NCBI GenBank assembly: GCA_964616425.1
Contig: CAZTQY010000002.1
Coordinates: 2,910 to 66,909, forward strand
Reading direction: 5' to 3'
DNA: 64,000 bases
DNA from: an uncultured Candidatus Saccharibacteria bacterium
GTDB taxonomy: Bacteria; Patescibacteriota; Minisyncoccia; Phycocordibacterales; DATDWN01
This document shows positions 14,044 through 53,404 of the stretch, piece after piece (position 1 is the first letter of the stretch; every line of letters begins with the position of its first letter). The notes under the pieces are model-generated. The model was not told the origin of the DNA. It ran no database searches and saw only the letters and a program-made list of their open reading frames with translations. The position numbers and the translations under genes are program-made.

Positions 14044-14128
14044 GTTGTTGCTGTTCAATTTTATTCATTCACCGTACGTCAAAGTACGGCTCACTCACAA
14101 AATCTCCAGCGCCTAGCATCTGAGGCAA
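14044..14128 (+). repeat. Dispersed intergenic repeat (GUAC-hairpin family), copy downstream of lysS
   Basis: gttgttgctgttcaatttt...accgtacgtcaaagtacggctcactcacaaaatctccagcgcctagcatctgaggca. Near-identical to the copy at 35326-35410. Confidence 0.7.
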
Positions 14129-14144
14129 TTTAACTCAGATTAGA

Positions 14145-14179: not shown

Positions 14180-14580
14180 TCATCTATTGACACAATCTGC
14201 TGGAGGTGTATAATATTATATGTGAATGGAAGAGGTGGCGTAAACGTGAACCTTTGGCGATATTCGCGGAGGATGGCGGTTACGCAGAAATACATCATTC
14301 CAATGTCACACCAGCTTGCGGAGGCTTCCAAATCGTCCTTACAGCCTTAGTTGTTCGGTCGATAAATAGATTCGCAGGCTGGAGTTCTTCTCAGGCATCA
14401 GTTCTTCCGAACAGGAGGTGCTCGTTGTATGAGTTTGGTTCCGGCAGGATGTAGGCCTGTCGGCAGAGATGGGGCCTGTTGTACCCATATAAGTTCTGTT
14501 CCGCAGGTGGGTGTCCACAATACACCAGGCACGGCCCCACCTGCGGAAATCTACAAGCTGACTTCGGTCGGCTTTTTTCG
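14180..14580 (+). ncRNA. Probable structured non-coding RNA gene of unidentified class (candidates: RNase P RNA, tmRNA, 6S)
   Basis: About 400 nt at roughly 55% GC in a 35% GC genome, with only short overlapping ORFs. Bounded by the lysS terminator upstream. Ends with an 11-bp stem (ccgcaggtggg/cccacctgcgg) plus an agctgac-ttcg-gtcggc-tttttt terminator at 14556-14579. Confidence 0.5.
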
Positions 14581-14605
14581 TATCTGAATTCCCAAAATAG
14601 AGCGA

Positions 14606-14801
14606 AATCATGAGTTTTTAAAACCCTGCGGAAGCAATTAGCAAATAACGACAAAGATAAAGTAAGCCTGAAGCATCTACCCCGCAGGGGCGACCAAAGG
14701 GAGTCTGCGTAAGGCTACGTATCGAGGAGATTAGTTGCTTGATTGCTGAGCAAGAGCAAAAATTCAACAGAATTTTATGTGTGTTTTAAAAACTCATGAT
14801 T
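14606..14801. repeat. Element bounded by a 19-bp perfect inverted repeat enclosing about 158 nt of GC-rich sequence
   Basis: aatcatgagtttttaaaac (14606-14624) and gttttaaaaactcatgatt (14783-14801). Inner cctgcgg...ccgcagg complementary pair. Confidence 0.55.
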
Positions 14802-18363: not shown

Positions 18364-18380
18364 AATTACTTTATATACTT

Positions 18381-18468
18381 CGTTGTGATTAGATTTTATT
18401 CGATCACTGTACGTTAGAGTACAGCTCACTCATAAAATCTCTCACGCCTTGTCTCTAAAGCAATTTCC
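18381..18468 (+). repeat. Dispersed intergenic repeat (GUAC-hairpin family), copy downstream of ftsI
   Basis: ...ttcgatcactgtacgttagagtacagctcactcataaaatctctcacgcc... The stem ctgtac/gtacag shows compensatory changes relative to ccgtac/gtacgg in the other copies. Confidence 0.65.
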
Positions 18469-19796: not shown

Positions 19797-20132
19797 TTAA
19801 ATTCCTAACTGAAATTTCCAATTCATTTTCACTATAGATAAATTAAATGGAGTTGAAATATTGCTTTGTTTTTTAAATGGAATCACTAAATCTTTTAATT
19901 TGATCAACATGGATTCTAAATCTTGTTCTGAAGCATTTGGAAAGGTTGCGTACACATAAATTTCAACAGGGGCAGCGTTTACAGTTATCTTGTTCTCTGA
20001 AGCAAAAACTGAAATATCTTTAGGATCATATTCTGTGGCTTTTGCTGCAAATCCATGAATTGCTTCAGCGACTATTTTAATTTCCTCTGGAGAGATTCTA
20101 CTTTTTTCGTAATCAATTCTAACTATAGGCAT
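19797..20132 (-). CDS. Tautomerase-superfamily (4-oxalocrotonate tautomerase-like) protein
   Basis: The internal Met gives MPIVRIDYEKSRISPEEIKIVAEAIHGFAAKATEYDPKDISVFASE, matching the Pro1-I-x-x-I ... S-x-E-x-K ... EAI ... P ... V-x-V ... E pattern. The track ORF start at 20216 runs into the tRNA-end repeat, so the later start is preferred. Confidence 0.45.
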   Translation of the reverse strand: MPIVRIDYEKSRISPEEIKIVAEAIHGFAAKATEYDPKDISVFASENKITVNAAPVEIYVYATFPNASEQDLESMLIKLKDLVIPFKKQSNISTPFNLSIVKMNWKFQLGI

Positions 20133-20151
20133 AATATTAATTATAACATGT

Positions 20152-20170
20152 TGTGACCTTACCGGGAATC
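20152..20170 (-). repeat. Direct repeat of a tRNA 3' end (copy 1 of 3)
   Basis: Minus strand gattcccggtaaggtcaca is identical to the 3' end of the tRNA at 20461-20532. Confidence 0.65.
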
Positions 20171-20308
20171 TTTCATTACATGAAGGGTCCCCGTGTTTGG
20201 ATATTTTTGTTCGCAAAGCTCCAAAACTATCTCAAACAGGCTTCGATTTCCGACGTAGAGTCTCCCAGACTCTACTGTAAGGTCAAAGCTTTTTGCTTCG
20301 CCAAAACC

Positions 20309-20333
20309 TGTGACCTTACCGGGAAATTCGAAA
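20309..20333 (-). repeat. Direct repeat of a tRNA T-loop plus 3' end (copy 2 of 3)
   Basis: Minus strand ttcgaatttcccggtaaggtcaca. Confidence 0.65.
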
Positions 20334-20460
20334 CTTACAGTTTCAGTACACCTTTTCTATTTTTTGTTTCTAACCGAACAAAAAATTATCAAAGGTTTTC
20401 GATTCCCTAAACAAAACATGTTTTGTTTTAAGGTCACAAAATTTCGTGACCTCAATTTTG

Positions 20461-20532
20461 TGACCTTACCGGGAATCGAACCCGGATTTAAGCCTTGAGA
20501 AGGCTTCGTCCTAACCGTTAGACGATAAGGCC
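20461..20532 (-). tRNA. tRNA-Glu, anticodon CUC
   Basis: 72-nt cloverleaf read on the minus strand: GGCCTTA / D-arm GTCT..GGAC / anticodon stem AAGCC-TTCTCAA-GGCTT / T-arm CCGGG-TTCGATT-CCCGG / TAAGGTC-A. CCA is not encoded. Confidence 0.65.
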
Positions 20533-20550
20533 AATAATCTAAATTTAAAA

Positions 20551-20693
20551 CTAGGGAATCGAACCGGCTCTCCTCCTTACAGGAGCAGTATACCTTTCGC
20601 TCTCTGACTACAGAGTGCTCAAGGTCTTGCAGTTGGGTCCCTATCCCAACTTCACCTCTCAAAGACCTTGTCTAACCTCTAGACTATAAGGCC
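20551..20693 (-). pseudogene. tRNA-like fragment or pseudo-tRNA
   Basis: Minus strand starts GGCCTTATAGTCTAGAGGTTAGACAAGGTCTTTGAGA, with an acceptor and D-arm nearly identical to the adjacent tRNA. The anticodon stem AGGTC only finds its partner GACCT about 36 nt later. A distal GCCGGTTCGATTCCC has no matching T-stem or acceptor 3' end. Confidence 0.4.
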
Positions 20694-20745
20694 AATTGAA
20701 CAGGAAAACTATAGCATTTTTTACAAAAAAATCAAAAATAAAAAA

Positions 20746-20784
20746 TTGACAAGTAGCTATTTTGCTATTAAATGTATTTAGGAG
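20746..20784 (+). promoter_or_regulatory. Promoter (consensus -35 TTGACA) and AGGAGG Shine-Dalgarno for the REC-like gene
   Basis: ttgaca 20746-20751, a -10 candidate tattaa/taaatg around 20766-20774, aggagg 20779-20784, ATG at 20790. Confidence 0.4.
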
Positions 20785-20789
20785 GCAGC

Positions 20790-21260
20790 ATGAAAATTCT
20801 GTTGGTAGAGGATGACTGGGTTGAGCGCGAGATGGCGCTCGATGACATCCGTGCACTGCTACCCAGAGCAGAAGTGACCGCGCTTATGAACGCTGGGGAA
20901 ATGCTCCTCAAGGTTCAGGAGGGTACTGATCTGGGTGGCGTGGATGTTGTGGTCATGGAACACCACCTTCCTCTCTGGGCAATCGGTGAGTCAGAGGAGG
21001 AGTGGGACCAAGCAGTAGGCAATCTCGAAAGAGATTTTCCTGAGGTGATTAGGGAATGGGACGGTCAGTTAGCTGGTGAGCGGCTCGTCCGCTACATGCG
21101 ATCGATAGGAATTCTGATTCCCGTTCTCTTCCACACGTACACTCAGGAATCACACATCGCTGAGGATGTTCGGAGAATGTCCAAAGTCTTCTACTGCTGC
21201 AAGCTACTTGAAAGGGAGCATCTTCCTGAAGCGATCACTGCGGCTGTGCAGGCTCGCTGA
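20790..21260 (+). CDS. Stand-alone CheY-like receiver (REC) domain protein, probably a pseudo-receiver
   Basis: KILLVEDD start. Glu appears where the phospho-acceptor Asp is expected (VDVVVMEHHLP). Conserved T/S (LFHTYT) and Lys (SKVFY) are present. About 57% GC. Start placed at 20790 (SD-ATG) rather than the track's 20772. Confidence 0.55.
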   Translation: MKILLVEDDWVEREMALDDIRALLPRAEVTALMNAGEMLLKVQEGTDLGGVDVVVMEHHLPLWAIGESEEEWDQAVGNLERDFPEVIREWDGQLAGERLVRYMRSIGILIPVLFHTYTQESHIAEDVRRMSKVFYCCKLLEREHLPEAITAAVQAR

Positions 21261-21265
21261 ACAAC

Positions 21266-21316
21266 CCGCTACAACTACGCACGGACGACCCGTTCGAAGT
21301 TGAGCGGGTTTTCCAA
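21266..21316 (+). terminator. Terminator hairpin after the REC-like gene
   Basis: aacccgct ... agcgggtttt. Confidence 0.5.
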
Positions 21317-21342
21317 TGTCAGGAAGGTGATATAATTTAATT

Positions 21343-21708
21343 ATGTCATTCGAAAACATATTTGGTCCGGACAGTTTGAGCATAGAAAAGAACCGGATAC
21401 TGGGTTTGCTCGAAAGAGATGGTCAGTCAGATGAAGCCATGTCCGCAGTACTGGCTTGGACAGAACAGATGGAAGTCAGATCGCTTATTTCATCTAGAGA
21501 AATGGTCCGTTTCAACGTAGATAGAGCTGCTCTATACGAGGCAATTGGCGATATAGAAGGAATGTTTGAAACACTTGCCGAAGCTTTTTATCAAATCAAA
21601 TCAGAAAAGGATTCAGGAAATGAACCAGGGGATTGGCAGGAGTTGTATGATAAGGTTGAAGGACTTTTAAAAGAAATGGATGCAAAATATCCAACTAATA
21701 ACGAGTAA
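21343..21708 (+). CDS. Hypothetical acidic protein
   Basis: 121-aa ORF. An extended -10 (tgatataat) sits immediately upstream. Confidence 0.35.
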   Translation: MSFENIFGPDSLSIEKNRILGLLERDGQSDEAMSAVLAWTEQMEVRSLISSREMVRFNVDRAALYEAIGDIEGMFETLAEAFYQIKSEKDSGNEPGDWQELYDKVEGLLKEMDAKYPTNNE

Positions 21709-21709
21709 C

Positions 21710-22063
21710 ATGTTAAAGAACAAAGTACAGTCACTCACAAATGCTCTGAGAGGTGTTGGATTCGTCTGGAAGGAGGAGTCAAACTTTGGTGTTATTATCT
21801 TTTTTGCCGTATTGGCACTTTGTATAGGATATTATTTTGATTTCACTCTCATTGAGTACTCTATCTGTGCTGTTATCATCACCATAGTTATGGTTGCTGA
21901 GATGGTTAACACTGCTATCGAGGATATATGTAACAAGATAGAGCCAAATCAGGATCCATCGATTGGTAAAATAAAAGACATTTCAAGTGGGTTTGTGCTT
22001 ATTGCTTCTCTTGGTGCAGGCGTTGCAGGACTTTTGGTATTCTTCAATCATTTCACATTTTAG
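21710..22063 (+). CDS. dgkA: Diacylglycerol/undecaprenol kinase family protein (DgkA)
   Basis: Three TM helices and the DgkA signature AEMVNTAIEDICNK. Internal Met start at 21710 preferred over 21680 because the earlier start overlaps the upstream gene. Confidence 0.65.
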   Translation: MLKNKVQSLTNALRGVGFVWKEESNFGVIIFFAVLALCIGYYFDFTLIEYSICAVIITIVMVAEMVNTAIEDICNKIEPNQDPSIGKIKDISSGFVLIASLGAGVAGLLVFFNHFTF

Positions 22064-22104
22064 TAAAATTTGTTGGCTATAACCGAATAAGATATAATTG
22101 ATTC

Positions 22105-24867
22105 ATGGAAAATTATTCTGAAAAGTTAAACTTTACTAGTCCAGAAGCTGAGATAGCCTACTTACGAGAAAAAATAGCAAACAAGGAACTTGAACTTCGA
22201 GAAAAGAAAGTTGATTTTAAAATTGATGAAGTTGTGAGTAGTGAGATCAGTCGATACAGAGATAAACTCTCTAAAGATGTTTTGGATGAGACTCTAGCCT
22301 TGTCAAAAGTAGACTTAGAGTCCCTCGTACTAGATCTCGCTCCAGAGAGGCACGACAAAAAAATAGAAGAGCTACTAGGTATACTTGATACAAAAGGGGT
22401 AAAGAATGCTATGTCTGTTTTATCCGAGTTCAAAGATCCCCATCTAGAGGATGATTTTCATAGGTTTCTGGTTCAATACGTAAAGAAAGGTTTTAAACCA
22501 AAAGAGTTAAATGTTTCCGACAAGGAGTACCGTGGTCTTAATATGACACTTTACGAGGTGGTTCTACCAGAGGATCCTTCAGATTCAGGTAATGAAAAGA
22601 AAAGTAAAACTCTCAAAGAGTTGATTTCTAGTATGGAGCAGTTTCTGGCTGGTATGCTCTCTGTTACAACAAAGGACGATACAAAAAGTTATAAAGAAAA
22701 CTACATCGTACTCGAAATAGCAAACGCTAACGGCAGTGACCAGTTTATTTTCTATGTTGCTGTTCCGAACATTCACAAGTCACTTTTTGAAAAACAAATT
22801 ATCTCTGTTTTCCATAATGCAAAACTGACAGAGGCAACAGGGGACTACAATATTTTCAACGGAGAAGGTGTTTCTTTGGGCTCATATGTTACATCATCAG
22901 TAAATCCTATTTATCCTTTCAAAACATATGAGGCGTTTGACCATGATCCATTAAATATAATTCTCAATAGCTTTTCTAAAATTGAAAAAGAGGGTGAGGG
23001 AGCTGGTATCCAAATAGTTTTCTCTCCAAAGTCTGACTACTATAATAAAAAATATAACTATGCTATCGAAAAGATAGAAAAAGGGGTTCCAACAAAAGAA
23101 GCTATAGATTTGCCAGAAACAGTTACAGGTGAGTTGCGAAAAGGCTTGTTCTCATTTTTTAAATCTGTTCCAAGTAAAAAAGAAGGTGAGGAAGAAAAGC
23201 CTGAAAAAATAGATACAGAAGCAATAGAGAAAATAAAACGAAAGACAGCGAGTACAATAGTGTCAACAAATATTCGCTTGATAGCATCTGCAAAGAGTCG
23301 TCCAGATGCTGAGAGAATTCTGCAAAGTCTAGAGTCTAGTTTTAACCAGTTTACAGACACGTCTTCGGGCGGGCTCAAGGCTGTTAGGTTAGATGCAAAA
23401 GCATTGATGAAGATGTTTAGAGAGTACTCTTTTAGAGTGTTTAACCCTGAGCAGAACTTGCCACTTAACCTTACAGAGTTTGCAACTCTTATACATTTTA
23501 ATACTTCTACACTTGTCCCAACTCCTCAACTGAAACAATCACAAACTATTTCTGCTCCGGCTCCAGCAGATATGCAGAATGCTGGGACATTTTTGGGAGT
23601 AAATACCTATAGAAATGTTGATACACCAATCTACATGCAGGATGAGGATAGGTTGAGACATTTGTACACTATTGGTCAGACAGGTACGGGTAAAACACGT
23701 TTCCTAAAGAGTTTAATTATTCAAGATATAAAAGCTGGCCATGGAGCATGTTTTATTGATCCACACGGAACAGATGTTTTAGATATCTTGGCAAATATTC
23801 CACAAGAACGATACAACGATGTTATTTATTTTGACCCTAGTCATGTAGAGCGACCTATGGCTCTCAATATGCTTGAGTACGATAGAAATTTCCCAGAGCA
23901 GAAAACTTTTGTTGTAAACGAACTATTTAGTATTTTCCAAAAATTGTACGGAGCGGTTCCAGAATCTCTTGGGCCTATGTTCGAACAGTATTTCAGAAAT
24001 GCGACTATGCTTGTGATCGAGGACCCAGACTCAGGTTGTACTTTGTTGGATGTTTCTCGTGTTATGACAAACAAAGAGTTTCGTAAGATGAAACTTGAGA
24101 AATGTAAAAATCCAGTTGTTGTTCAGTTCTGGACAGAGGTTGCAGAGAAAGCTGGTGGTGAGGCATCTCTCGCGAACATCGTCCCGTACATCACATCAAA
24201 GTTTGATGTCTTCCTTGCAAACGATATTATGAGACCTATCATCGCCCAAGAAAAATCTTCTTTCAACTTTAGGGAGATAATGGATAACAAAAAAATCCTT
24301 TTGGTAAATCTATCAAAAGGTAGACTAGGGGACATAAATGCGAACCTTATCGGACTTATTTTAGTAGGAAAGATACTTATGGCTGCACTATCACGAGTTG
24401 ACTCTGCTTCTGGAAACTTTCCACCGTTTTATCTATATATAGATGAGTTCCAGAATATTACAACAGATTCTATTTCAACTATTTTGTCAGAGGCGCGAAA
24501 GTATAAACTTTCACTTAACATTGCACACCAGTTTATTGCTCAGTTGCAAGAAAACATCAGAGATGCAGTGTTCGGAAACGTAGGATCTATAGTTGCGCAC
24601 AGGGTCGGAGCAGAGGATGCAGAATATTTGGAAAAACAGTTTTCTCCAGAGTTTACGGCAAAGGATATTATGAATATTGATAACTTGAATTCTTATGTGA
24701 AAATGTTGGTGGGTGGAAAACCAGTAAAAGCATTTAATATGAAAGACTCACAGCCTCCAGAAGGAAACCCAGCAATCGTAGACAAATTGAAACAACTGTC
24801 ATTTCTTGAGTATGGAGGGGATAGGGAAGCAGTCGAAGCCGAAATTCTAAGAAAGTATAATAAATAA
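22105..24867 (+). CDS. VirD4/TraG/TraD-like (T4SS coupling-protein family) P-loop ATPase, 920 aa, no N-terminal TM anchor
   Basis: Walker A GQTGTGKT, FIDPHG motif, Walker B-like YLYIDEFQN, C-terminal AHQ/ATPase core. Long soluble N-terminal region. Confidence 0.55.
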   Translation: MENYSEKLNFTSPEAEIAYLREKIANKELELREKKVDFKIDEVVSSEISRYRDKLSKDVLDETLALSKVDLESLVLDLAPERHDKKIEELLGILDTKGVKNAMSVLSEFKDPHLEDDFHRFLVQYVKKGFKPKELNVSDKEYRGLNMTLYEVVLPEDPSDSGNEKKSKTLKELISSMEQFLAGMLSVTTKDDTKSYKENYIVLEIANANGSDQFIFYVAVPNIHKSLFEKQIISVFHNAKLTEATGDYNIFNGEGVSLGSYVTSSVNPIYPFKTYEAFDHDPLNIILNSFSKIEKEGEGAGIQIVFSPKSDYYNKKYNYAIEKIEKGVPTKEAIDLPETVTGELRKGLFSFFKSVPSKKEGEEEKPEKIDTEAIEKIKRKTASTIVSTNIRLIASAKSRPDAERILQSLESSFNQFTDTSSGGLKAVRLDAKALMKMFREYSFRVFNPEQNLPLNLTEFATLIHFNTSTLVPTPQLKQSQTISAPAPADMQNAGTFLGVNTYRNVDTPIYMQDEDRLRHLYTIGQTGTGKTRFLKSLIIQDIKAGHGACFIDPHGTDVLDILANIPQERYNDVIYFDPSHVERPMALNMLEYDRNFPEQKTFVVNELFSIFQKLYGAVPESLGPMFEQYFRNATMLVIEDPDSGCTLLDVSRVMTNKEFRKMKLEKCKNPVVVQFWTEVAEKAGGEASLANIVPYITSKFDVFLANDIMRPIIAQEKSSFNFREIMDNKKILLVNLSKGRLGDINANLIGLILVGKILMAALSRVDSASGNFPPFYLYIDEFQNITTDSISTILSEARKYKLSLNIAHQFIAQLQENIRDAVFGNVGSIVAHRVGAEDAEYLEKQFSPEFTAKDIMNIDNLNSYVKMLVGGKPVKAFNMKDSQPPEGNPAIVDKLKQLSFLEYGGDREAVEAEILRKYNK

Positions 24868-24893
24868 TTTCAAAATATCTTATAGAAAGCGAA

Positions 24894-24926
24894 AGGACCC
24901 GACGCAACATGTGTGCGCAGGGTCCT
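24894..24926. terminator. Hairpin (7-bp stem) at the convergent junction of the ATPase gene and small ORF C
   Basis: aggaccc ... gggtcct. Confidence 0.4.
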
Positions 24927-24935
24927 GATGAGGGA

Positions 24936-25130
24936 CTAGTCGATGGGAAACTCTATTTCGTTTCCCTGATCGGCGGCAGCCTCTGCTCCAGAGAGAAGCT
25001 TGTCGAGGCGTACAGCCTCGAGGCATTCTTCTTTTTCGACCCCTCTCAAATCGTGGGGTAAATCAAGAAGTGACGCCACTTCCTCAGGGGTGAGGTCATC
25101 GCGGTCTTTGCAGGCCGCATCATGAGCCAT
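24936..25130 (-). CDS. Small acidic protein C (64 aa), third gene of a GC-rich triad
   Basis: MAHDAACKDRDDLTPEEVASLLDL... About 58% GC. Preceded on its strand by a near-consensus promoter and GGAGG SD. Paralogous to 28709..28891 (C.RD...[ST].EEVA.L..D block). Confidence 0.55.
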   Translation of the reverse strand: MAHDAACKDRDDLTPEEVASLLDLPHDLRGVEKEECLEAVRLDKLLSGAEAAADQGNEIEFPID

Positions 25131-25185
25131 AGGCTCCTCCTCTGTACTACATTATAATACACATTATGACTCTTTGTCAAGCTAG
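25131..25185 (-). promoter_or_regulatory. Near-consensus sigma70 promoter plus GGAGG SD driving small ORF C
   Basis: Minus strand reads TTGACA-aagagtcataatgtgta-TTATAAT...gtacagaGGAGGagcctATG. The -35 is the complement of tgtcaa at 25175-25180, and the -10 the complement of attataat at 25151-25158. Confidence 0.55.
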
Positions 25186-25241
25186 TTATCCACATAGCGA
25201 AAGAGCCAACCTGGTTTCCCAAATTGGCTCCGTGAAAGTTC

Positions 25242-25454
25242 TCATCGGCTTTTCACTCCTTTTTTGTTTTGGAGTTCCAAAGCCTCTTTCTTGATGTTTC
25301 TCCTTGCGGTTTCTTTTGTTTCTCCAAAGAAGCCAAAATGGATTAGACAGTCATTTAGAACTGTCTCGAACAGGTCGGGGTCCGTATTGCCTTGCATCCT
25401 TTGTCTGTCGTACTCGGAGTTTACCCACCGAGCCATCTTGTGGTTTTCTTTCAT
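25242..25454 (-). CDS. Small basic protein B (70 aa, or 64 aa from the internal Met), middle gene of the triad
   Basis: MKENHKMARWVNSEYDRQRMQG...ARRNIKKEALELQNKKGVKSR. GC-rich. Same position and size as 28907..29089. Confidence 0.45.
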   Translation of the reverse strand: MKENHKMARWVNSEYDRQRMQGNTDPDLFETVLNDCLIHFGFFGETKETARRNIKKEALELQNKKGVKSR

Positions 25455-25518
25455 TAGAGACCTCTAAAAACAGTCTAAAACTAATTTTATTTTTGGTCTA
25501 GTAGTAGCAAATTTATAA

Positions 25519-25565
25519 GAAAAAGGCTGGTGCTGCGTAGGTACTGCAGGCGACCAGCCTTTTTA
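25519..25565. terminator. Bidirectional terminator-like hairpin between small ORFs A and B
   Basis: aaaaaggctggt ... gaccagccttttt. Confidence 0.5.
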
Positions 25566-25598
25566 GGTGACGACGCGACGATCTGTCATAGTTGGCTC

Positions 25599-25802
25599 CT
25601 ACGCCGCCGAGGCTTTTAAAAGATTCTTGTACTCCACACCGATCTGTTTTCGTAGTTCCAGATCGCATGGATTGTCGCCGTTTCGCTCCATCACTCGACT
25701 GACGATTGAATCGAGTTCTGACGCTGATGCGCCATCGCTGTCGGCATAAATCTTTTCTGCCATCTGTTTGACAGTCATCTTCTTCTTGTGCACTTTTATC
25801 AC
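25599..25802 (-). CDS. Small protein A (about 60-67 aa), first gene of the triad
   Basis: ...MTVKQMAEKIYADSDGASASELDSIVSRVMERNGDNP... Paralogous to 29190..29375 (S..E[LV].[DS]IV....ER block). GTG/ATG start ambiguous. GGGAGGGGG SD upstream. Confidence 0.5.
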   Translation of the reverse strand: MIKVHKKKMTVKQMAEKIYADSDGASASELDSIVSRVMERNGDNPCDLELRKQIGVEYKNLLKASAA

Positions 25803-25837
25803 CCCCTCCCTAACAATATTATACTGTTAAGTTAAAA

Positions 25838-25962
25838 ATTATAAAAGTCGGTAAAATTAAACTAAGAAAATAGCTTTAGATGCTAGGCGCGAGCGAGTAC
25901 TACGACCAAGCTGTACATTTAGTACTGTGCGTGGAGTATACGGAGTGAGCAACAACGCAGAT
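25838..25962 (-). repeat. Dispersed intergenic repeat (GUAC-hairpin family), minus-orientation copy downstream of yqeY
   Basis: The reverse complement reads gttgttgctcactccgtatactccacgcacagtactaaatgtacagcttggtcgtagtactcgctcgcgcctagcatct. It combines motifs of the 14044 and 37128 copies. Confidence 0.55.
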
Positions 25963-25974
25963 GAAGCTATTTTA

Positions 25975-26430
25975 TTAGTTTAGTAGTTCGTCAACTACTG
26001 CTTTGACTGTATCTCCATCTGCCTTTCCTTTGAGATCTTTCATGAGAGCACCCATGAACATTCCAGCTTTTGATTTATCAACTGCTCCCATCTCTGCCAT
26101 TTTAGCTTTTGCAATTGTCATTACATCTTCTTTACTCATCATTGCTGGTAGGTATGTTTCTAGTATTGCGAGTTCGGCTTTTTCGTCCTCAGCGAGTTCT
26201 GGTCGTCCACCACTAACGAACTGTTCGATTGAATCCTTTCTCTGCTTTACAGCGCGACGTATAACCGCAAGTGCATCTTCATCAGATAACTCATCTTGTG
26301 GCATTTTGCCTAGCTTTACTAACTCGTTTGTAAATGCTGATGAAAGTCCACGAACAACACCAAGCTTTACTGAATCTTTGGCTTTCATAGCTTCTTTCAT
26401 CTGCTCCTTAATATCTATTTGTATTGTCAT
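25975..26430 (-). CDS. yqeY: GatB/YqeY-domain protein
   Basis: 151 aa with a YqeY-like helical domain (…LSDEDALAVIRRAVKQRKDSIEQF…). Confidence 0.7.
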   Translation of the reverse strand: MTIQIDIKEQMKEAMKAKDSVKLGVVRGLSSAFTNELVKLGKMPQDELSDEDALAVIRRAVKQRKDSIEQFVSGGRPELAEDEKAELAILETYLPAMMSKEDVMTIAKAKMAEMGAVDKSKAGMFMGALMKDLKGKADGDTVKAVVDELLN

Positions 26431-28708: not shown

Positions 28709-28891
28709 TCAGTTATCGAGTAACGCCTTCATCGTACTTATGTCGAGAACATCTGCAACGAGCTTTGCTACTTCCTCTGACACTCCAGCTTGAATTGTGT
28801 CGCGAATGAAGCATCGCTCGACATCCGCGTCGGCCAATGCGGCCTTGTTCCACTCGTTGTTACGAGCGGAAATTTCGGGTTCGAATTCCAT
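28709..28891 (-). CDS. Small acidic protein C' (60 aa), paralog of 24936..25130
   Basis: MEFEPEISARNNEWNKAALADADVERCFIRDTIQAGVSEEVAKLVADVLD... GC-rich. 15 nt downstream of B'. Confidence 0.5.
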   Translation of the reverse strand: MEFEPEISARNNEWNKAALADADVERCFIRDTIQAGVSEEVAKLVADVLDISTMKALLDN

Positions 28892-28906
28892 AACGGAGCC
28901 TTTCTG

Positions 28907-29089
28907 TCAGCCGGGTTGTTCCAGCAGTTCAGTTCGAATCTCGAGGAGCGCCTGAATAATCGCTTCCTCGGGATCGGATAGACCTTTCTTGAGACTATCT
29001 AGGTAGTCTGCTGCACGTTTTTCGGTCCAGCCGTGCTTGTTGGCAATTTCTCGGATTTTTCGCTTGCGAATTTCTGGGCTCAGTGCCAT
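28907..29089 (-). CDS. Small basic protein B' (60 aa)
   Basis: MALSPEIRKRKIREIANKHGWTEKRAADYLDSLKKGLSDPEEAIIQALLEIRTELLEQPG. GGAGG SD 6 nt upstream of the ATG at 29089. The longer track ORF (to 29263) overlaps A' and the AT-rich intergenic region, so the shorter reading is preferred. Confidence 0.5.
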   Translation of the reverse strand: MALSPEIRKRKIREIANKHGWTEKRAADYLDSLKKGLSDPEEAIIQALLEIRTELLEQPG

Positions 29090-29143
29090 TCCGGGCCTCC
29101 GGATATAAGTGTATATAAATAATATTCTTTTACAATACGATGA

Positions 29144-29188
29144 AAGACCCGGGTACATGGAGTTAGGGTCTCCATCTCGCGGGTCTTG
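29144..29188 (-). terminator. Hairpin (8-bp stem) immediately after the A' stop, between A' and B'
   Basis: aagacccg...cgggtctt, with an inner atggag...ctccat stem. Confidence 0.4.
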
Positions 29189-29189
29189 A

Positions 29190-29375
29190 TTAGTCGACAG
29201 AAACAGCGGCCTCCATCTCTTTGTACATGCGCACCCATGCGAGGATCTCTCGCACAGCTGCACGAGTCGAAAGGCGCGCTCTTTCTTTGTGGTCGAGGAC
29301 GATATCGCAGACCTCTTCCCAAGAGCAGTTGAGCTCGTTGGCGATAAGCGCCACCAAACGTGACGGTCTTTTCAT
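29190..29375 (-). CDS. Small protein A' (61 aa), paralog of 25599..25802
   Basis: MKRPSRLVALIANELNCSWEEVCDIVLDHKERARL... Possibly HTH-like. GC-rich. AGGGAG SD upstream. Confidence 0.5.
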   Translation of the reverse strand: MKRPSRLVALIANELNCSWEEVCDIVLDHKERARLSTRAAVREILAWVRMYKEMEAAVSVD

Positions 29376-35325: not shown

Positions 35326-35410
35326 CGTTGTTGCTGTTCAATTTTTCTCATTCACCGTACGTCAAAGTACGTATCACTCGCAAAATTTCCAGCGCCTAGT
35401 ATCTGAGGCA
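35326..35410 (+). repeat. Dispersed intergenic repeat (GUAC-hairpin family), copy downstream of ctpA
   Basis: cgttgttgctgttcaatttttctcattcaccgtacgtcaaagtacgtatcactcgcaaaatttccagcgcctagtatctgaggca. Confidence 0.7.
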
Positions 35411-35438
35411 TTTTTGAAATTATTACGTTTATGCTAAT

Positions 35439-35898: not shown

Positions 35899-35940
35899 AA
35901 AACCGCCGGACTGACAGATATCGCCAGCTGGCGGTTTTCT
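35899..35940 (+). terminator. Intrinsic terminator after rplI, also at the 3' end of the convergent GC-rich gene
   Basis: aaaaccgccgg...ccagctggcggttttct. Confidence 0.65.
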
Positions 35941-35955
35941 GTAGTTCGGCGGTTG

Positions 35956-36333
35956 TTACTTGGTTTTGCGCCTCTTCCTGTCGGTGAAGTCCTGCTGGAG
36001 CCAAGCGTCCACGTCGACTCCCCGAGAATCAAGGATGGAGCACCAAACCATGATGGCTGTGTCTCCGATGCCTTCGTACTCCATCAACTGATGGAGGTCA
36101 ATCCTCCGGGCGAGCTCGTGCACTCCCTTGGGTTTGAACCTTTGCAAAACGAGATCGAGATTGGCGGCAGCGAAGAAGTTCGCAGTTTCCGCCTTCACAA
36201 CCATGTCACGTCGGGTGAACTGGTCTTTGCCGACCTGTACAATCGTCTCAGGGAGACGATCGACGTAGTTCTTACCGATGTGGTCTTTCCAGCGTTTGTG
36301 TGCCATGTACGCCACTCCTTTGAGGCGTTTCAA
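35956..36333 (-). CDS. Hypothetical GC-rich protein (about 55% GC)
   Basis: 125-aa ORF, MKRLKGVAYMAHKRWKDHIGKNYVDRLPETIV... Composition differs from the flanking ribosomal genes. The plus-strand ORF 35953..36336 is its mirror artefact. Confidence 0.45.
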   Translation of the reverse strand: MKRLKGVAYMAHKRWKDHIGKNYVDRLPETIVQVGKDQFTRRDMVVKAETANFFAAANLDLVLQRFKPKGVHELARRIDLHQLMEYEGIGDTAIMVWCSILDSRGVDVDAWLQQDFTDRKRRKTK

Positions 36334-36408
36334 TGATAATTATATCACTTTATATGTACATGTCAAGTACTTTTAAGTAAGAAAAAACGCCCAACTGGGC
36401 GCTAGTTC

Positions 36409-37127: not shown

Positions 37128-37232
37128 TAAATTTCTTTGTTGTTCGTTTGCGTTTGCTCCACGCGCAGTATACTTATACAGCTTGGTCGCAAGCCGCACT
37201 CACGCCTCGAACTTTAGAAAAAATTTACCGGA
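37128..37232 (+). repeat. Dispersed intergenic repeat (GUAC-hairpin family, second subtype)
   Basis: tttgttgttcgtttgcgtttgctccacgcgcagtatacttatacagcttggtcgcaagccgcactcacgcctcgaacttta. Confidence 0.65.
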
Positions 37233-42915: not shown

Positions 42916-44784
42916 CTACTTCGATGGCTTATAAGCCCGTCCAGTGATGCTACCTTCGTGCCGAGCCATGATCTCGGAAGCGCGCTGGTTGTACACCTGC
43001 GCAGTTTCGATATCAATGTTCGTGAAGTAGTGATACCAGGCTTCTTCAACACTGGTCGGAACAACTAAGTCCGACGCGTGCTTTCCAAAGCTGTGATGCC
43101 ACTGCTCCGACGAAATCTCTTTTCCGGCAATCGCTGCAAGCGTGCGAGCCTTCTCGTAGCTCGTGAATACTTCGCTGACTGGCGAACCGAAGTTCAACCA
43201 ATACAGATCAGTTTCCACGAGATCGAGTTGAGACCCGAGCGTCGCAATCGACCACTCAAGAAATTCGATACTCCGCTCACAAGAGTCGGTTGTCTCACCT
43301 GGAGATCCGAAGATCAAGGAATAGTGGAGATGCGTGCCACTCTTTCGAATGTTGCGCACCGCCTCATAGTTCTCCTCAATCCGCGAACCTTTACCCAAAG
43401 AAGACTTTATGACACCTTGTGCGAGGATTCTGCCGTCACCTGAATCCATCCCTACGTTCACCAGAAGTCGGTCACTCACGAGTGAGAGCCAACTATCAAG
43501 GAGTTCGGGTTGGAGGGCGAGGCCTTGAGCACGACCATAGATTGTCAGAGCATCGAATGAAGCTCCAACTTTCTGCAGTCGTTCTACAAGTGGACGCATC
43601 TCATAAGCTGAATCGGTCGTGTTGAAGATCATGCGGATCCCTAACGACTCGTAAGCTTCGAGTGTACGTCTCAAGTAATCCTCAGAAGGAATACGAATAT
43701 CAGCAACTCCTGCAATCGTGCAGTAACTGCAAACATCCGTACCACGGGTGCGGGTGCACCCCTGAGCAAACAGAGCGATGCCATTTCGGACAGCGTCACC
43801 GTTCTGATGTTTGTGACCGAACACCTTTCGGTAATTCGACCATACCTCTTTCCAGTACGAATCCGGGAAAAGATCAAACTTCGGAACGATGAAGACATCT
43901 TCGACATCGAAGGCGCCTTGTCGCTCAAGTTCCTTTAGGTTCTTGAGTTCTGACATAAGCACCTGCTGGACGTTTGATCGTGCCGATCCGCCACTCATCA
44001 CAGCCACTCCAGGAATTTGAAGCCTTGAGAGCTCCACTTTCCCGAATTGACGGAAGAAGTTACGAATCGACGCGAGGCTATTGGAAGTGAAGACCACATC
44101 AATGGGGTGACCTGGCAAACTCAAGATCTCGTTTGCTCGGAAGATTGCTGAATCGTTTCCAGAGATAACTGCCGAAGCTCCAAGTGTCTTGGCCTGCTTA
44201 GCCAACTCAACTCCGCGTTCCACTCCAGTCACAACGAGACCAAGGCCGACGACATCGCCTGGTTGAACGAGTTTCTCAAGATCGCAATGACCTTGAACGA
44301 GCTCGTCCCACAAGACAACATCATAACCTTCCTCGTGTGCAGCCGTCCCAACGTAGAGCATTCCCAAGTGAGGCCATGTTCGGTATTGTCTACCAACCTC
44401 GACATCCCACAAAGTTTGCTCAACATTGATCAGCACGAAGCGCCGACGAGCTTGCTGTGCGACAGCGAAGAACGCTGATGCACAGAAGATTTCGGGCTTG
44501 CGGGTCAGGTCCGAACGAACAACGATCACCGTATGGTGTTTCTCTGGAATATCGTACAGATGAACGAGCTGATATTTCTTGACCGGATCACGTTCTTCCG
44601 CGATGGCAGCTGATAACCAGTTGTCATGCAGGTTTCTGTTTACGAAAACGTGTCTCTCCACATCGTGATGGATGTAAGCCGGATTCCCGAATATTAGTTC
44701 GGGAATCGCTGCTTCACCTGACCAGACCGTCTCTGTTTTGAACAGGGAGGCGATCATGAGAACTGCGATTACAAGTTTGCGCAT
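42916..44784 (-). CDS. GC-rich (about 50% GC) putative secreted protein with a B12-binding/radical-SAM-like region and a non-canonical Cx7CxxC motif
   Basis: Signal-peptide-like N-terminus MRKLVIAVLMIASLF, a Rossmann-like DVVGLGLVVTGVERGVELAKQAKTLGASAVISG, and a Cys cluster GCTRTRGTDVCSYC. Confidence 0.35.
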   Translation of the reverse strand: MRKLVIAVLMIASLFKTETVWSGEAAIPELIFGNPAYIHHDVERHVFVNRNLHDNWLSAAIAEERDPVKKYQLVHLYDIPEKHHTVIVVRSDLTRKPEIFCASAFFAVAQQARRRFVLINVEQTLWDVEVGRQYRTWPHLGMLYVGTAAHEEGYDVVLWDELVQGHCDLEKLVQPGDVVGLGLVVTGVERGVELAKQAKTLGASAVISGNDSAIFRANEILSLPGHPIDVVFTSNSLASIRNFFRQFGKVELSRLQIPGVAVMSGGSARSNVQQVLMSELKNLKELERQGAFDVEDVFIVPKFDLFPDSYWKEVWSNYRKVFGHKHQNGDAVRNGIALFAQGCTRTRGTDVCSYCTIAGVADIRIPSEDYLRRTLEAYESLGIRMIFNTTDSAYEMRPLVERLQKVGASFDALTIYGRAQGLALQPELLDSWLSLVSDRLLVNVGMDSGDGRILAQGVIKSSLGKGSRIEENYEAVRNIRKSGTHLHYSLIFGSPGETTDSCERSIEFLEWSIATLGSQLDLVETDLYWLNFGSPVSEVFTSYEKARTLAAIAGKEISSEQWHHSFGKHASDLVVPTSVEEAWYHYFTNIDIETAQVYNQRASEIMARHEGSITGRAYKPSK

Positions 44785-52371: not shown

Positions 52372-53097
52372 CTATCGCTTTGAAATCCATCTCAGAATCT
52401 GGGTTGCTACCCAGGGGGCTTGCCATGACGCGAGCGTCAGATGGCCAACGTTCTTGAGTTCGATGATTTCAGCTTGCTGACCTGCTGAAAGCATTTTTCT
52501 CCCAAGCTTCCACTGAGCTTTGCAGTTGATCCACCTGTCCTGGTCACCAAACACGTGAAGAGTCGGATAGTTGTATCCGTGGAAGACTGGAGGAACAAAA
52601 GCAAGTGTTCTGGCTTCATTGCCCGAGATCATGGTTCTGTGTCTCACGGCTCTTTCGATGTTGCTGTGAATTCCAGGTTCCACGAGTACTCGATATTCGT
52701 GCTCGGTTGTTCGAATCATCCTGCCGAGCATGAGGTCAGAAACTCGACCCCTCATAACTTTCCAAAGGGTTTCAGTCATGTACTGGATGCCCCATGGCAT
52801 AGCCGGTGAGAGCATCACGACTCCAGCAAGTGGTCGTCTCAGTTGATGCAGTCTTTCGGCTACAATACGCACAGCGCTGCCGCCAGCAGACTGACCAACC
52901 AAGAAGACGGCTTCCGAACCAGTGACATGACTGTAGTACGCGTCAAGTACCAATCTAACACGATCTTCGTGTGTTACGACACTAGAAGTGTCGATAACCA
53001 CAACCTCGTGGTCGGCACTCAACAGTTTCCTTTTCAAGAAATCGAACGTAACTTCCGGATGGCCTCCAAGACCATCCACACAAATTACAGTGGCCAT
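52372..53097 (-). CDS. Alpha/beta-hydrolase (esterase/lipase-like), GC-rich
   Basis: GQSAG nucleophile elbow, about 55% GC. Confidence 0.6.
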   Translation of the reverse strand: MATVICVDGLGGHPEVTFDFLKRKLLSADHEVVVIDTSSVVTHEDRVRLVLDAYYSHVTGSEAVFLVGQSAGGSAVRIVAERLHQLRRPLAGVVMLSPAMPWGIQYMTETLWKVMRGRVSDLMLGRMIRTTEHEYRVLVEPGIHSNIERAVRHRTMISGNEARTLAFVPPVFHGYNYPTLHVFGDQDRWINCKAQWKLGRKMLSAGQQAEIIELKNVGHLTLASWQAPWVATQILRWISKR

Positions 53098-53332
53098 GAA
53101 GGCCCTCCTTCTATTTTTACTATTACATTAATTATAGTGTGAGTCAATACTTGACTAAATACTGATATCTGTTAAAGTCATGACTAATGACAAATATTGG
53201 TAACCAACTGAATATTGGAGGAAAAGGCCGAACAGGTTTTGTTTCTTCTGTTGTATCTAAAAAAACACCAGCAGCATATGCGGGTGGGTTACGCTGTATT
53301 TCTAGAACTTAATCAAAAGCGATTGAGTCCTA

Positions 53333-53360
53333 AAAATGCCGCGTTACGCGGCATTTTTAG
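53333..53360. terminator. Bidirectional terminator hairpin
   Basis: aaaaatgccgcg-ttac-cgcggcattttt. Confidence 0.6.
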
Positions 53361-53404
53361 TTCTTTGGGTTCTTTAATAACATAAGTTTGCACAAGGAGG
53401 ACGC

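Follow-up and report, generated by a model that had tools for sequence, protein, structure and literature searches.

In this work we have examined a window of DNA, the whole 64,000-nucleotide stretch under analysis, in which a first-pass annotation had singled out the span 20746-25960 as an island next to a tRNA gene. The tRNA does adjoin the region: it is a tRNA-Glu(CTC) on the minus strand at 20460-20532, called by ARAGORN and by Rfam (tRNA, 63.6 bits). The plus strand then carries an orphan gene of 156 aa, the REC-like gene or "pseudo-receiver" (20790-21260, N-terminus MKILLVEDD), an ORF of 121 aa (21343-21708) directly upstream of dgkA, dgkA itself (21710-22063; 21710 is its likely start by comparison with relatives) and an ORF for an ATPase of 920 aa (22105-24867). 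The assignment of dgkA to the prokaryotic diacylglycerol/undecaprenol kinase family was borne out by Pfam (DAGK_prokar, E = 4.9e-27). The triad of small ORFs was also found as described, all on the minus strand: s64 (64 aa, 24936-25130), s70 (70 aa, 25242-25454) and s67 (67 aa, 25599-25802). They are followed by yqeY, again on the minus strand (25975-26430). The layout may be read as tRNA-Glu, a variable slot, dgkA, a core ATPase gene, a second variable slot and yqeY.

Is this span a single mobile island? The relatives of the locus, with ATPases 50–89% identical, have the order mraZ…murF–tRNA-Glu–dgkA–ATPase–yqeY–rmuC–L21–recR–dnaB, so that dgkA and the ATPase gene lie between the dcw (division/cell-wall) cluster and yqeY-rmuC-L21-recR-dnaB. 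This gene order is kept in L001, L002, L004, L006, L009, L023, L027 and L071; dgkA adjoins the ATPase gene in the first four of these loci, and the tRNA-Glu has the same position upstream of the pair in L001, L002 and L006. In these loci, MurF and PBP2 reach an identity similar to or below that of the ATPase. A relative of the ATPase is carried by at least 543 species-level Paceibacteria genomes, with the 80 best being full-length at 50-74% identity, and the protein collection holds at least 2258 homologues. Composition is not uniform across the span. The REC-like gene, s64, s67 and s70 are GC outliers (z = 5.8, 6.2, 3.9 and 2.5, respectively) and in this part the suspicion of atypical composition was justified, whereas dgkA and the ATPase gene are native (GC z = 0.4 each; GC3 z = 1.7 and 0.8) and the 121-aa ORF is borderline (GC z = 1.4).

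The annotation had also suggested the remnant of an integrative element. According to this explanation, the ATPase is the coupling protein left over from an integrative/conjugative element at the tRNA-Glu whose genes for integrase, relaxase and mating pore have been lost. The ATPase is indeed of the coupling-protein type and its closest characterised relatives are found on plasmids and phages. The neighbouring tRNA, the GC-rich REC-like gene and small ORFs, and the absence of the REC-like gene and the 121-aa ORF from L001 and L002 would fit as well. However, dgkA and the ATPase gene are native in composition, the motifs of the ATPase are invariant, and its chromosomal place is kept in relatives as low as 50% identical and within so widespread a family, all of which speaks against it. 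Moreover, the repeat search found the tRNA 3' end partially copied at two places (20148-20170 and 20305-20327, without strand; repeat family D6), 96% and 78% identical to 20455-20477. Both copies are located 3' of the tRNA and the proposed island 5' of it, and the same search found no repeats bounding 20746-25960. A mobile origin, if there was one, must be older than the radiation of the class. We therefore regard the remnant as very improbable, and for the ATPase this reading is already largely refuted. As had been noted from the start, no integrase, relaxase or T4SS parts are visible; a Pfam scan of the ~65 long ORFs of the window found none of these families. Our preferred explanation, which we hold to be probable when chromosomal context, ATPase family and domesticated role are taken jointly, is that the span is not a single mobile island and that its dgkA and ATPase part is vertically inherited, conserved chromosome. 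The host region would then be a conserved stretch of chromosome in a Paceibacteria (Parcubacteria, Zambryskibacteria-like) genome.

The REC-like gene and the three small ORFs would, in our explanation, be separate, lineage-specific, GC-rich coding genes which fill both variable slots, each with its own promoter. In the first slot, the TTGACA (20747-20752) and AGGAGG (20780-20785) elements reported for the REC-like gene are present, although its GC content was measured as 53% and not 57%. Since the AGGAGG is followed after 4 nt by the ATG at 20790, this is the true start rather than 20772. The promoter, whose -10 element is weak, was not listed in the promoter scan; a hairpin with a T-run lies 3' of the gene (~21263-21314). 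Only three homologues were found among 5.8 billion proteins, and the two with retrieved context (L004 and L006) are syntenic and likewise GC-rich. The gene has no Pfam match, and the profile of its family gives weak response-regulator matches (E = 0.04-0.8). For the 121-aa ORF we read a TGaTATAAT at 21328-21336, 6 nt 5' of its ATG. L006 has an orthologue 57% identical to it and L008 a 34% match; profile searches, including Pfam, NCBIfam, PADLOC and PHROG, matched the ORF to no family.

In the second slot, s64 (GC 0.54) has a promoter matching the sigma-70 consensus in 12 of 12 positions (25180-25151) and the ribosome-binding site GGAGGAG, and in L004 and L006 its orthologues, 52-55% identical, occupy the same position. 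An orthologue of s70 (GC3 0.52), 77% identical, is at the same place in L001. For s67 (GC3 0.56) we found a partial match in L004, and a hairpin lies between s67 and s70 (~25520-25565). Substitutions by codon position were 51/36/95 for the REC-like gene against L004, 17/16/35 for s64 and 9/9/23 for s70; the excess of third-position changes between species marks the REC-like gene, like the small ORFs, as coding. Could they form one defence or toxin-antitoxin-like module with the ATPase? The ATPase has weak PADLOC matches (mad8, E = 3e-10; DndH; HerA) and the small neighbours have strong promoters of their own. However, the PADLOC matches are restricted to the generic P-loop core, and neither the REC-like gene nor any of the small ORFs matches a defence, phage or Pfam family. 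Close relatives differ in the small genes but not in the ATPase, most clades have the ATPase without these neighbours, and in distant clades the small genes are absent beside it. Such a module is thus highly unlikely. We treat these neighbours as genes separate from the ATPase.

The ATPase belongs to a family defined by Pfam DUF8128 and TraG-D_C which is conserved across the class Paceibacteria; NCBI names it 'TraM recognition domain-containing protein'. It consists of a helical N-terminus specific to the lineage, then a domain with the VirB4 N-terminal fold, and lastly a P-loop motor of the VirD4/TrwB type with intact Walker A and B. The helical region (residues 1-134; 22105-22506), modelled by AF2 with low to moderate confidence, is missing from the plasmid and phage relatives, whose hhalign and PHROG matches begin at residues 160-176. 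Residues 135-478 (22507-23538) form an alpha/beta core, recorded for orthologues as PF26449:DUF8128. The N-terminal part, for which the annotation had proposed a soluble extension of 400 aa, is longer (~480 aa) and is a defined domain known outside the lineage as well, rather than an extension unique to it. No N-terminal hydrophobic segment was found, in agreement with the reported absence of a membrane anchor; the sole Kyte-Doolittle peak (1.94, residues 744-762) is a helix within the modelled ATPase core. The model of the N-domain (pTM 0.78) suggests that it is folded like the N-terminal domain of VirB4, with modest TM-scores: in a Foldseek search against the PDB, all 13 chains with E <= 1e-3 were TrwK/VirB4 (E = 1.6e-6 to 8e-5, TMq 0.40-0.46) and the next unrelated protein had E = 2.3e-3. 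Against BFVD the domain matched Bacillus phage G gp156 and phage JL with TMq of 0.62-0.65.

The remaining residues, 479-920 (23539-24867), match coupling-protein-like P-loop domains in both profile and structure. The hallmarks pointed out earlier, GQTGTGKT (Walker A, residues 524-531; 23674-23697) and FIDPHG (residues 550-555; 23752-23769), are present, as is Walker B, YLYIDEFQ (24430-24453). The motifs are invariant in 62 sequences and the gene is thus under purifying selection. The description as a VirD4/TraG-like ATPase held when profile searches were run. TraG-D_C reached 26.2 bits (cutoff 22), TrwB_AAD_bind came close to its cutoff (19.8 vs 20.5), and the best NCBIfam matches were SXT_TraD (E = 1.9e-12) and CD1115 VirD4-like (E = 3.3e-11). 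TrwB (E = 6e-4) and DotL (E = 1.3e-3) were the top matches of the ATPase profile in the PDB, and the structural models, of moderate confidence (pLDDT ~76), compare with TrwB at a TMt of ~0.65. On the basis of these profile matches and the model, the ATPase belongs on the VirD4/TraD/TrwB, or coupling-protein, side of T4SS ATPases. The alternative that it is a chromosomal HerA/FtsK-like DNA translocase, acting in segregation, division or recombinational repair and resembling T4SS ATPases through shared fold ancestry, seems unlikely to us. In this clade the gene does end the dcw cluster beside rmuC, recR and dnaB, HerA structures are among the good Foldseek matches, and there are weak matches to DUF87, FtsK and the PADLOC HerA. 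However, the HerA and FtsK profiles stay below their thresholds (16.3 vs 23.2 and 14.5 vs 24) and are weaker than TraD, VirD4 and TraG-D_C, the profile search of the PDB puts TrwB and DotL ahead of HerA, and the N-domain resembles VirB4 and not the HerA barrel. Most other clades, furthermore, have secY-adk-map and ndk as neighbours and not genes of DNA metabolism; this second housekeeping context, secY-adk-map-ATPase-ndk, accounts for ~25-38 of 84 loci, the number varying with which neighbour is counted. Since the context of the gene varies by clade, it gives no consistent functional partner.

How does the protein compare with known systems? With the coupling proteins VirD4, TraD, TrwB and DotL it shares the P-loop motor with both Walker motifs in the same context, and its model superposes on TrwBdeltaN70 over ~450 columns. 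In contrast to them it has no N-terminal transmembrane anchor, carries the N-terminal region of 480 aa with its VirB4-like domain, has no relaxase or mating-pore gene nearby, scores far under the NCBIfam TraD and VirD4-like cutoffs, and is a vertically inherited core gene in housekeeping operons. With VirB4 (TrwK of R388) it shares solubility, a length of ~800-920 aa and the arrangement of an N-terminal alpha/beta domain and a C-terminal RecA-like ATPase, and the best Foldseek E-values of the full-length model go to VirB4. However, there is no match at the sequence level (TIGR00929, 14 bits vs a cutoff of 643; no AAA_10/CagE), no VirB4 chain appeared at E <= 1 in the profile search of the PDB, virB3, virB6 and virB8 do not adjoin, and the TM-scores are modest. 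Closer are a Bacillus plasmid 'DUF87' ATPase, homologous over the DUF8128 core and the ATPase domain (hhalign probability 100%, E = 1e-39, 649 columns), and phrog_5156 (SPO1 gp27.4, phage G gp156; E = 6.7e-80 over residues 160-917). These proteins are also soluble and of broadly similar length (825-913 aa; ~800-900 aa), but they are only 21-26% identical to the Paceibacteria protein, which adds a helical N-terminus of ~135-175 aa. On the Bacillus conjugative-type plasmid the gene occupies the coupling-protein position beside a Replic_Relax nickase, followed by TcpC and a VirB4-like AAA_10 protein, and in SPO1-type phages gp27.4 is likewise beside a Replic_Relax nickase. A homologue of this nickase was looked for in the window and in 87 related loci and not found.

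From homology and context, the protein is most likely a soluble, hexameric ATPase that has been domesticated and serves in translocation or coupling. The domesticated translocase which the annotation had offered as its other option fits the data, namely a conserved orphan coupling-type ATPase in a housekeeping context. In Paceibacteria the nickase partner would have been lost and the gene would now reside in housekeeping operons. The soluble ATPase, probably a hexamer, may dock at the membrane via its VirB4-like N-domain, and the docking partner may be a patescibacterial T4SS encoded elsewhere or another complex. ATP would drive the handover or translocation of a macromolecular substrate, in a process distinct from classical relaxase-dependent conjugation. 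Could the substrate be environmental or host DNA, taken up by a domesticated motor together with type IV pili and ComEC? Patescibacteria rely on imported nucleotides and carry competence genes, according to background cited in two reports (PMC12102498, PMC12857230), and the ATPase is a core gene of the DNA-translocating type. However, neither the window nor any of the 84 loci analysed has a pilus or competence gene linked to it, ComEC-dependent uptake was reported to be dispensable in the single species tested, and DNA and protein substrates are indistinguishable from the present data. We consider a role in DNA uptake rather improbable.

Orphan VirD4-like genes in Patescibacteria have already been published by Quinonero-Coronel et al. 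2025 (PMC12102498). That study reports 5,713 VirD4-like homologues in 2,918 genomes, only 148 of them near virB4, and suggests exaptation. Our ATPase resembles these orphan T4CPs as a VirD4-like chromosomal gene far from virB4 and without a relaxase, the condition of most homologues in the study, although their set may not include the DUF8128 family. Unlike our description, the text consulted has no mention of a DUF8128 or VirB4-like N-domain, of housekeeping-operon contexts or of a link to Replic_Relax-associated plasmid and phage ATPases. It also reports that in the sole Patescibacteria species tested genetically, a member of the Saccharimonadia, the t4cp homologue is non-essential, a gene which may not be a DUF8128 member.

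Lastly, the edges of the region contain some smaller features. A tRNA-like sequence on the minus strand (20541-20700), read from the sequence and interrupted by ~95 nt, sits between the conserved tRNA promoter and tRNA-Glu; neither ARAGORN nor Rfam calls a tRNA there, and the region is 83.7% identical to L006 6390-6622. At the other end, a copy of a repeated structured element of ~90 nt (25864-25968, minus strand; pattern match 25873-25891, consensus hairpin) aligns with copies at 14044, 18379 and 35327. It lies just downstream of yqeY and belongs to the 3' end of that gene, not to an island.

The 920-aa ATPase encoded at 22105-24867 on the plus strand is the gene on which our reading of this region turns. 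Its exact sequence is not on record, and relatives were used for the database work. Three motor motifs, GQTGTGKT (residues 524-531), FIDPHG (550-555) and the Walker B sequence DEF (780-782), are invariant across 62 homologues, and orthologues carry the precomputed assignments PF26449 (DUF8128) and TraG-D_C. On the ATPase itself TraG-D_C scores above threshold (26.2 bits vs a cutoff of 22), whereas the HerA-type profile DUF87 (16.3 vs 23.2) and FtsK_SpoIIIE (14.5 vs 24) do not. The best NCBIfam matches are SXT_TraD (E = 1.9e-12) and the CD1115 VirD4-like model (E = 3.3e-11), both below their curated cutoffs (46.5 bits vs 366 for SXT_TraD, which is a subfamily model, and 42.7 vs 250 for CD1115), as is TOL TraD (31.8 vs 647); VirB4, HerA and FtsK profiles score far lower than these TraD/VirD4-like models. 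A phmmer search against PDB sequences returned noise only and a family profile was needed; this profile found TrwB first (E = 6e-4) and DotL next (E = 1.3e-3), and no VirB4 chain in the PDB. The AlphaFold model, of moderate confidence (pLDDT 75.9), superposes on TrwB over nearly the whole chain with a TM of ~0.65 and has an all-helical insertion (residues 598-727) that may correspond to the all-alpha domain of TrwB, while TrwB_AAD_bind reaches 19.8 bits, just under its cutoff of 20.5. We conclude that, judged by sequence, the C-terminal half of the protein is coupling-protein-like. A HerA/FtsK-like chromosomal role could appeal to the structural likeness of the model to these motors, which is confined to the shared ATPase core; with DUF87 and FtsK_SpoIIIE both under threshold we consider such a role unlikely, and less likely than that of a relaxase-independent translocation motor. 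The first-pass annotation had described the protein as VirD4/TraG-like and possibly domesticated, with the hallmark T4SS motifs and without a membrane anchor, and in this it was right: no hydrophobic segment lies in the first 700 residues, and the sole Kyte-Doolittle peak is a core helix at residues 744-762.

A different affinity emerges from the N-terminal domain (residues 135-478, the DUF8128 core). Modelled alone, likewise with moderate confidence, it reached a pTM of 0.78, and a Foldseek search of the PDB returned 13 chains at E <= 1e-3, all of them TrwK/VirB4 (E = 1.6e-6 to 8e-5, probability 1.0, TMq 0.40-0.46) and aligned over their N-terminal part; the next, unrelated protein stood at E = 2.3e-3. 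Among viral models, those of Bacillus phage G gp156 and phage JL matched with a TMq of 0.62-0.65. The domain is thus predicted to have the fold of a VirB4-type N-terminal domain. The likeness to VirB4 does not extend to the ATPase domain, however, since neither of the Pfam VirB4 families CagE_TrbE_VirB and AAA_10 was matched and TIGR00929 gave 14.1 bits against a cutoff of 643. Taken together, the fold matches of the N-domain and the profile matches of the C-terminal half point to a VirB4-like plan carrying a VirD4-like motor. With the canonical coupling proteins VirD4, TraD and TrwB the ATPase shares the motor, whose Walker A and B motifs the family profiles recognise, but it departs from them in architecture and genomic status: it has no N-terminal transmembrane anchor and, within the window, no linkage to relaxase or mating-pore genes.

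Relatives with the same design occur on plasmids and phages. The profile phrog_5156 matches residues 160-917 of the ATPase (E = 6.7e-80), and tblastn matched the ATPase at 21-26% identity to SPO1 gp27.4, phage G gp156 and Bacillus plasmid 'DUF87' proteins, and in the motor only to archaeal and actinobacterial plasmid ATPases. When the family profile was aligned by hhalign to an 885-aa B. subtilis plasmid protein, the match spanned 649 columns and both domains (probability 100%, E = 1e-39). The plasmid gene heads a conjugation-type cluster, followed by genes for a Replic_Relax nickase, TcpC and an AAA_10 VirB4-like ATPase, and the gene for a Replic_Relax 'nicking' protein likewise follows SPO1 gp27.4. 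Given these neighbours, the ATPase relative occupies the coupling-protein position in the plasmid and in SPO1. In contrast to these nickase-linked ATPases, neither the window nor any of the 87 related loci (with handles of the form L001) has a Replic_Relax homologue, and a Pfam scan of the ORFs of the 64-kb window found no relaxase, VirB4, VirB6 or other mating-pore family, in agreement with the original remark that no such parts are visible.

How is the gene distributed? Among loci with 76-89% identical ATPases the gene order is mraZ-rsmH-ftsL-PBP2-murF, tRNA-Glu, a variable segment, dgkA, the ATPase, the small ORFs where present, yqeY, rmuC, L21, recR, dnaB and cysS; the same backbone is found at 50-71% ATPase identity in L009, L023, L027 and L071, where dgkA does not adjoin. 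When one genome per species was scanned, at least 543 genomes proved to contain relatives. In the best 80 of these they are full-length and 50-74% identical, and the bins are labelled Zambryski-, Taylor-, Nomura-, Kaiser- and Campbellbacteria and Paceibacter. A cluster look-up of distant relatives of the N-domain gave Paceibacterota/Minisyncoccia names only, with no other phyla by that route. A second context was seen among L013-L087, in which the ATPase directly follows secY (25 of 84 loci), adk (30/84) and map (33/84), with ndk (38/84) and a beta-CASP RNase gene downstream. All of these genes share one strand and form the end of the ribosomal-protein operon (for example L062 4046-13944, L028 on the complete Paceibacteria genome OY970290.1, and L031). 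In close relatives the ATPase is at least as conserved as PBP2 and MurF of the same loci. From its distribution, constraint and context we conclude that the ATPase is a vertically inherited core gene.

The first-pass annotation had taken the span 20746-25960 for an island next to the tRNA. What it observed was largely correct, with the genes and quoted motifs in place: tRNA-Glu(CTC) at 20460-20532 (minus), the REC-like ORF at 20790-21260 (plus; true start 20790, with AGGAGG 4 nt upstream and TTGACA at 20747), a 121-aa ORF at 21343-21708 (plus), dgkA at 21710-22063, the ATPase, and three minus-strand ORFs of 64, 70 and 67 aa (24936-25130, 25242-25454 and 25599-25802) before yqeY (25975-26430, minus). 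The dgkA product belongs to the prokaryotic diacylglycerol kinase family by a full-profile match above threshold (DAGK_prokar, E = 4.9e-27, 94.2 bits vs a cutoff of 22.3, profile positions 2-102 of 102 aligned). An extended -10 element (TGaTATAAT; site 21328-21343) ends 6 nt upstream of the ATG of the 121-aa ORF, which lacks a ribosome-binding site, and this suggests that the unit of this ORF, dgkA and the ATPase is transcribed as a leaderless message. The 121-aa ORF matched no family in Pfam, NCBIfam, PHROGs or PADLOC.

The interpretation as an island, on the other hand, proved wrong. The window has a GC content of 37.8% and carries housekeeping genes throughout (mreB, mreC, PBPs, greA, mraZ-rsmH-ftsL-PBP2-murF, rmuC, L21, L27, L9, recR, dnaB, cysS, corA, ABC exporters, scpA and scpB); by the names of close homologues it belongs to Parcubacteria/Paceibacteria, near Zambryskibacteria. 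Against 47 reference ORFs of the window (GC 0.364 ± 0.029, GC3 0.282 ± 0.052) the ATPase (GC z = 0.4, GC3 z = 0.8) and dgkA (0.4 and 1.7) are ordinary. Strong outliers are the REC-like ORF (GC z = 5.8), the 64-aa and 67-aa ORFs (6.2 and 3.9) and the 70-aa ORF (GC z = 2.5, GC3 z = 4.6). Since only these four are atypical, the span is a mosaic and not a compositionally coherent island. Could it be an island that has decayed? Islands left by integrative elements normally lie 3' of the tRNA, as does the repeat of its 3' end. The window does contain two partial copies of the tRNA-Glu 3' end, 23 nt long, at 20148-20170 (22/23 identical) and 20305-20327, but they sit 3' of the tRNA, on the side opposite to the proposed island; the window repeat search found no bounding repeat near its far end at 25960, and the Pfam scan of the window ORFs no integrase or recombinase. 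Moreover, tRNA-Glu and the tRNA promoter are conserved at the same site in relatives, where dgkA and the ATPase are not missing: both occupy it in L001, L002, L004 and L006, and in L009, L023 and L071 the ATPase is there unaccompanied by dgkA. L001 and L002 lack just the REC-like and 121-aa ORFs and keep the dgkA-ATPase pair. We therefore regard a decayed island as highly improbable, and less likely than a translocation motor. When genomes of this kind are annotated, a T4SS-type ATPase beside a tRNA and amid GC-rich genes does not count as evidence for a mobile island. The place to expect an old insertion at the tRNA is 19797-20327, on the other side, where the copies of the tRNA 3' end adjoin a tautomerase-like gene of low GC (19797-20133, starting MPIVRI) with no match in any of the 87 related loci.

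What might a core gene of this type do? Our results establish its superfamily-level membership, its domain folds, its intact catalytic motifs, its core-gene status and the lack of local relaxase and T4SS partners. We hypothesize that the protein is a soluble hexameric ATPase motor which would dock at the membrane through its VirB4-like N-domain and, with no need of a relaxase, use ATP hydrolysis to deliver or translocate a macromolecule. As to its origin, an ATPase of the coupling-protein lineage that still carries a VirB4-type N-domain may have been acquired from a monoderm conjugative element or phage before the Paceibacteria radiated, and may then have settled within operons as a core motor, behind secY-adk-map or the dcw cluster; we offer this scenario as a whole tentatively and hold it, on balance, to be doubtful. 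If it were true, the ATPase would be a living VirB4/VirD4 intermediate, and in addition either the missing substrate receptor or energiser of the T4SS on which the host dependence of these episymbionts rests, or a motor for a new housekeeping translocation task. The DNA-uptake motor that had been suggested at the outset is quite unlikely, and less likely than a relaxase-independent translocation motor. The same comparison goes against a defence module, which seems to us very improbable: PADLOC gave generic P-loop matches only (mad8, DndH, HerA) with no partner genes, and we rejected this reading.

Patescibacteria, with their minimal genomes, rely on hosts, and in the single species tested a T4SS proved essential. 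The family is known and annotated but functionally uncharacterised, and a literature search for 'DUF8128' found no papers. The survey by Quinonero-Coronel et al. (2025, PMC12102498) counts 5,713 VirD4-like homologues in 2,918 Patescibacteria genomes, only 148 of them near virB4, reports relaxases as almost absent and raises exaptation as a possibility; the existence of orphan VirD4-like genes is thus already known. Most VirD4-like genes of the group being such orphans, two results narrow the question of how substrates reach the T4SS: one orphan family belongs to the core genes of the whole class and lies in ribosomal or cell-wall operons, and it combines a predicted VirB4-like N-domain with a coupling-protein motor that nickase-linked plasmid and phage ATPases share. 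The family is thus a concrete candidate for genetics or structural work.

The GC-rich genes flanking the ATPase vary between close relatives and are absent beside it in most clades, so we do not treat them as its partners. The REC-like protein has only three homologues among 5.8 billion proteins; the two with retrieved context, in L004 and L006, share its site and its high GC content. Its N-terminus is MKILLVEDD, and at the phospho-acceptor position at the end of beta-3 (VVMEHHLP) all four family members have an invariant Glu. Pfam gave no match at E <= 0.1, and a four-sequence profile gave weak, register-consistent receiver matches (5uic, E = 0.04; 3cz5, E = 0.047; FixJ, E = 0.31). If the REC fold holds, the Glu in place of the acceptor Asp would make it a pseudo-receiver, which is plausible. 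The REC-like and small ORFs matched no family in Pfam, NCBIfam, PHROGs or PADLOC. Orthologues of the 64-aa ORF are present in L004 and L006, with a possible one in L001, which also has an orthologue of the 70-aa ORF; a homologue search with the 64-aa ORF returned the query alone, the word index being insensitive for a query of that length. In every pair tested, substitutions are in excess at third codon positions (e.g. 9/9/23 and 51/36/95), and the REC-like and small ORFs are therefore real coding genes.

Their GC3 is 0.46-0.62 in every species, against 0.28 for core genes, while roughly every second identical residue is encoded by a different codon in the orthologue and synonymous change is near saturation. 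This retention could mean that a class of small proteins is under a selective or mutational regime that has gone unrecognised. One idea is high expression, because the 64-aa ORF has a 12/12 consensus promoter and GC3 is somewhat raised in L21 and L27; another is repeated transfer from a GC-richer pool. More generally, in the window, L001, L004 and L006 accessory genes fill slots between core genes, with a GC3 of 0.45-0.62 vs 0.28 for the core, and keep it in the orthologues of other species despite heavy synonymous divergence. Other GC-rich patches of the window lie at 14339-14611, 28709-29263 and 35953-36336, and the accessory genes include those for a 622-aa radical-SAM protein (42916-44784) and for an alpha/beta hydrolase and an ABC exporter (52372-55186). 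Between L9 and L27 lies a GC-rich palindrome of 54 nt (35901-35954), and the stretch of 0.54 GC after it, to 36336, is open on both strands; its ORFs of 127 and 125 aa had no family match.

A tRNA-like sequence (20541-20700, minus) separates tRNA-Glu from the conserved tRNA promoter and has a counterpart in L006 (6390-6622), where it is 83.7% conserved; it is absent from L001 and L002. Its 5' half, GGCCTTATAGTCTAGAGGTTAGAC..., and its 3' part, ...GGTTCGATTCCC, are split by ~95 nt with a hairpin of their own. Neither ARAGORN, allowing introns and a lowered threshold, nor Rfam, at the gathering threshold and at E <= 1, called it, and tRNA-Glu was the only call. It could be a tRNA gene that is interrupted, or else a tRNA copy that has decayed.

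Intergenic elements of ~90 nt recur at 14044-14131, 18379-18466 and 35327-35414 (plus), at 25864-25968 (minus) and in L001 (5051-5140). They start within ~75 nt 3' of a stop codon, in the orientation of that gene, the upstream genes being an AspRS-like gene, PBP2, a Ctp protease and yqeY. They had no Rfam match and fold as one long imperfect hairpin, in which 5 of 21 pairs are kept by two-sided changes, and they could serve as a terminator or 3'-UTR element specific to the lineage, or represent a REP/MITE-like repeat. Upstream of an HlyD-like gene, 31 nt at 37177-37207 are 77% complementary to 25885-25915, in the interior of the element downstream of yqeY, and may represent one more, diverged member of this family.
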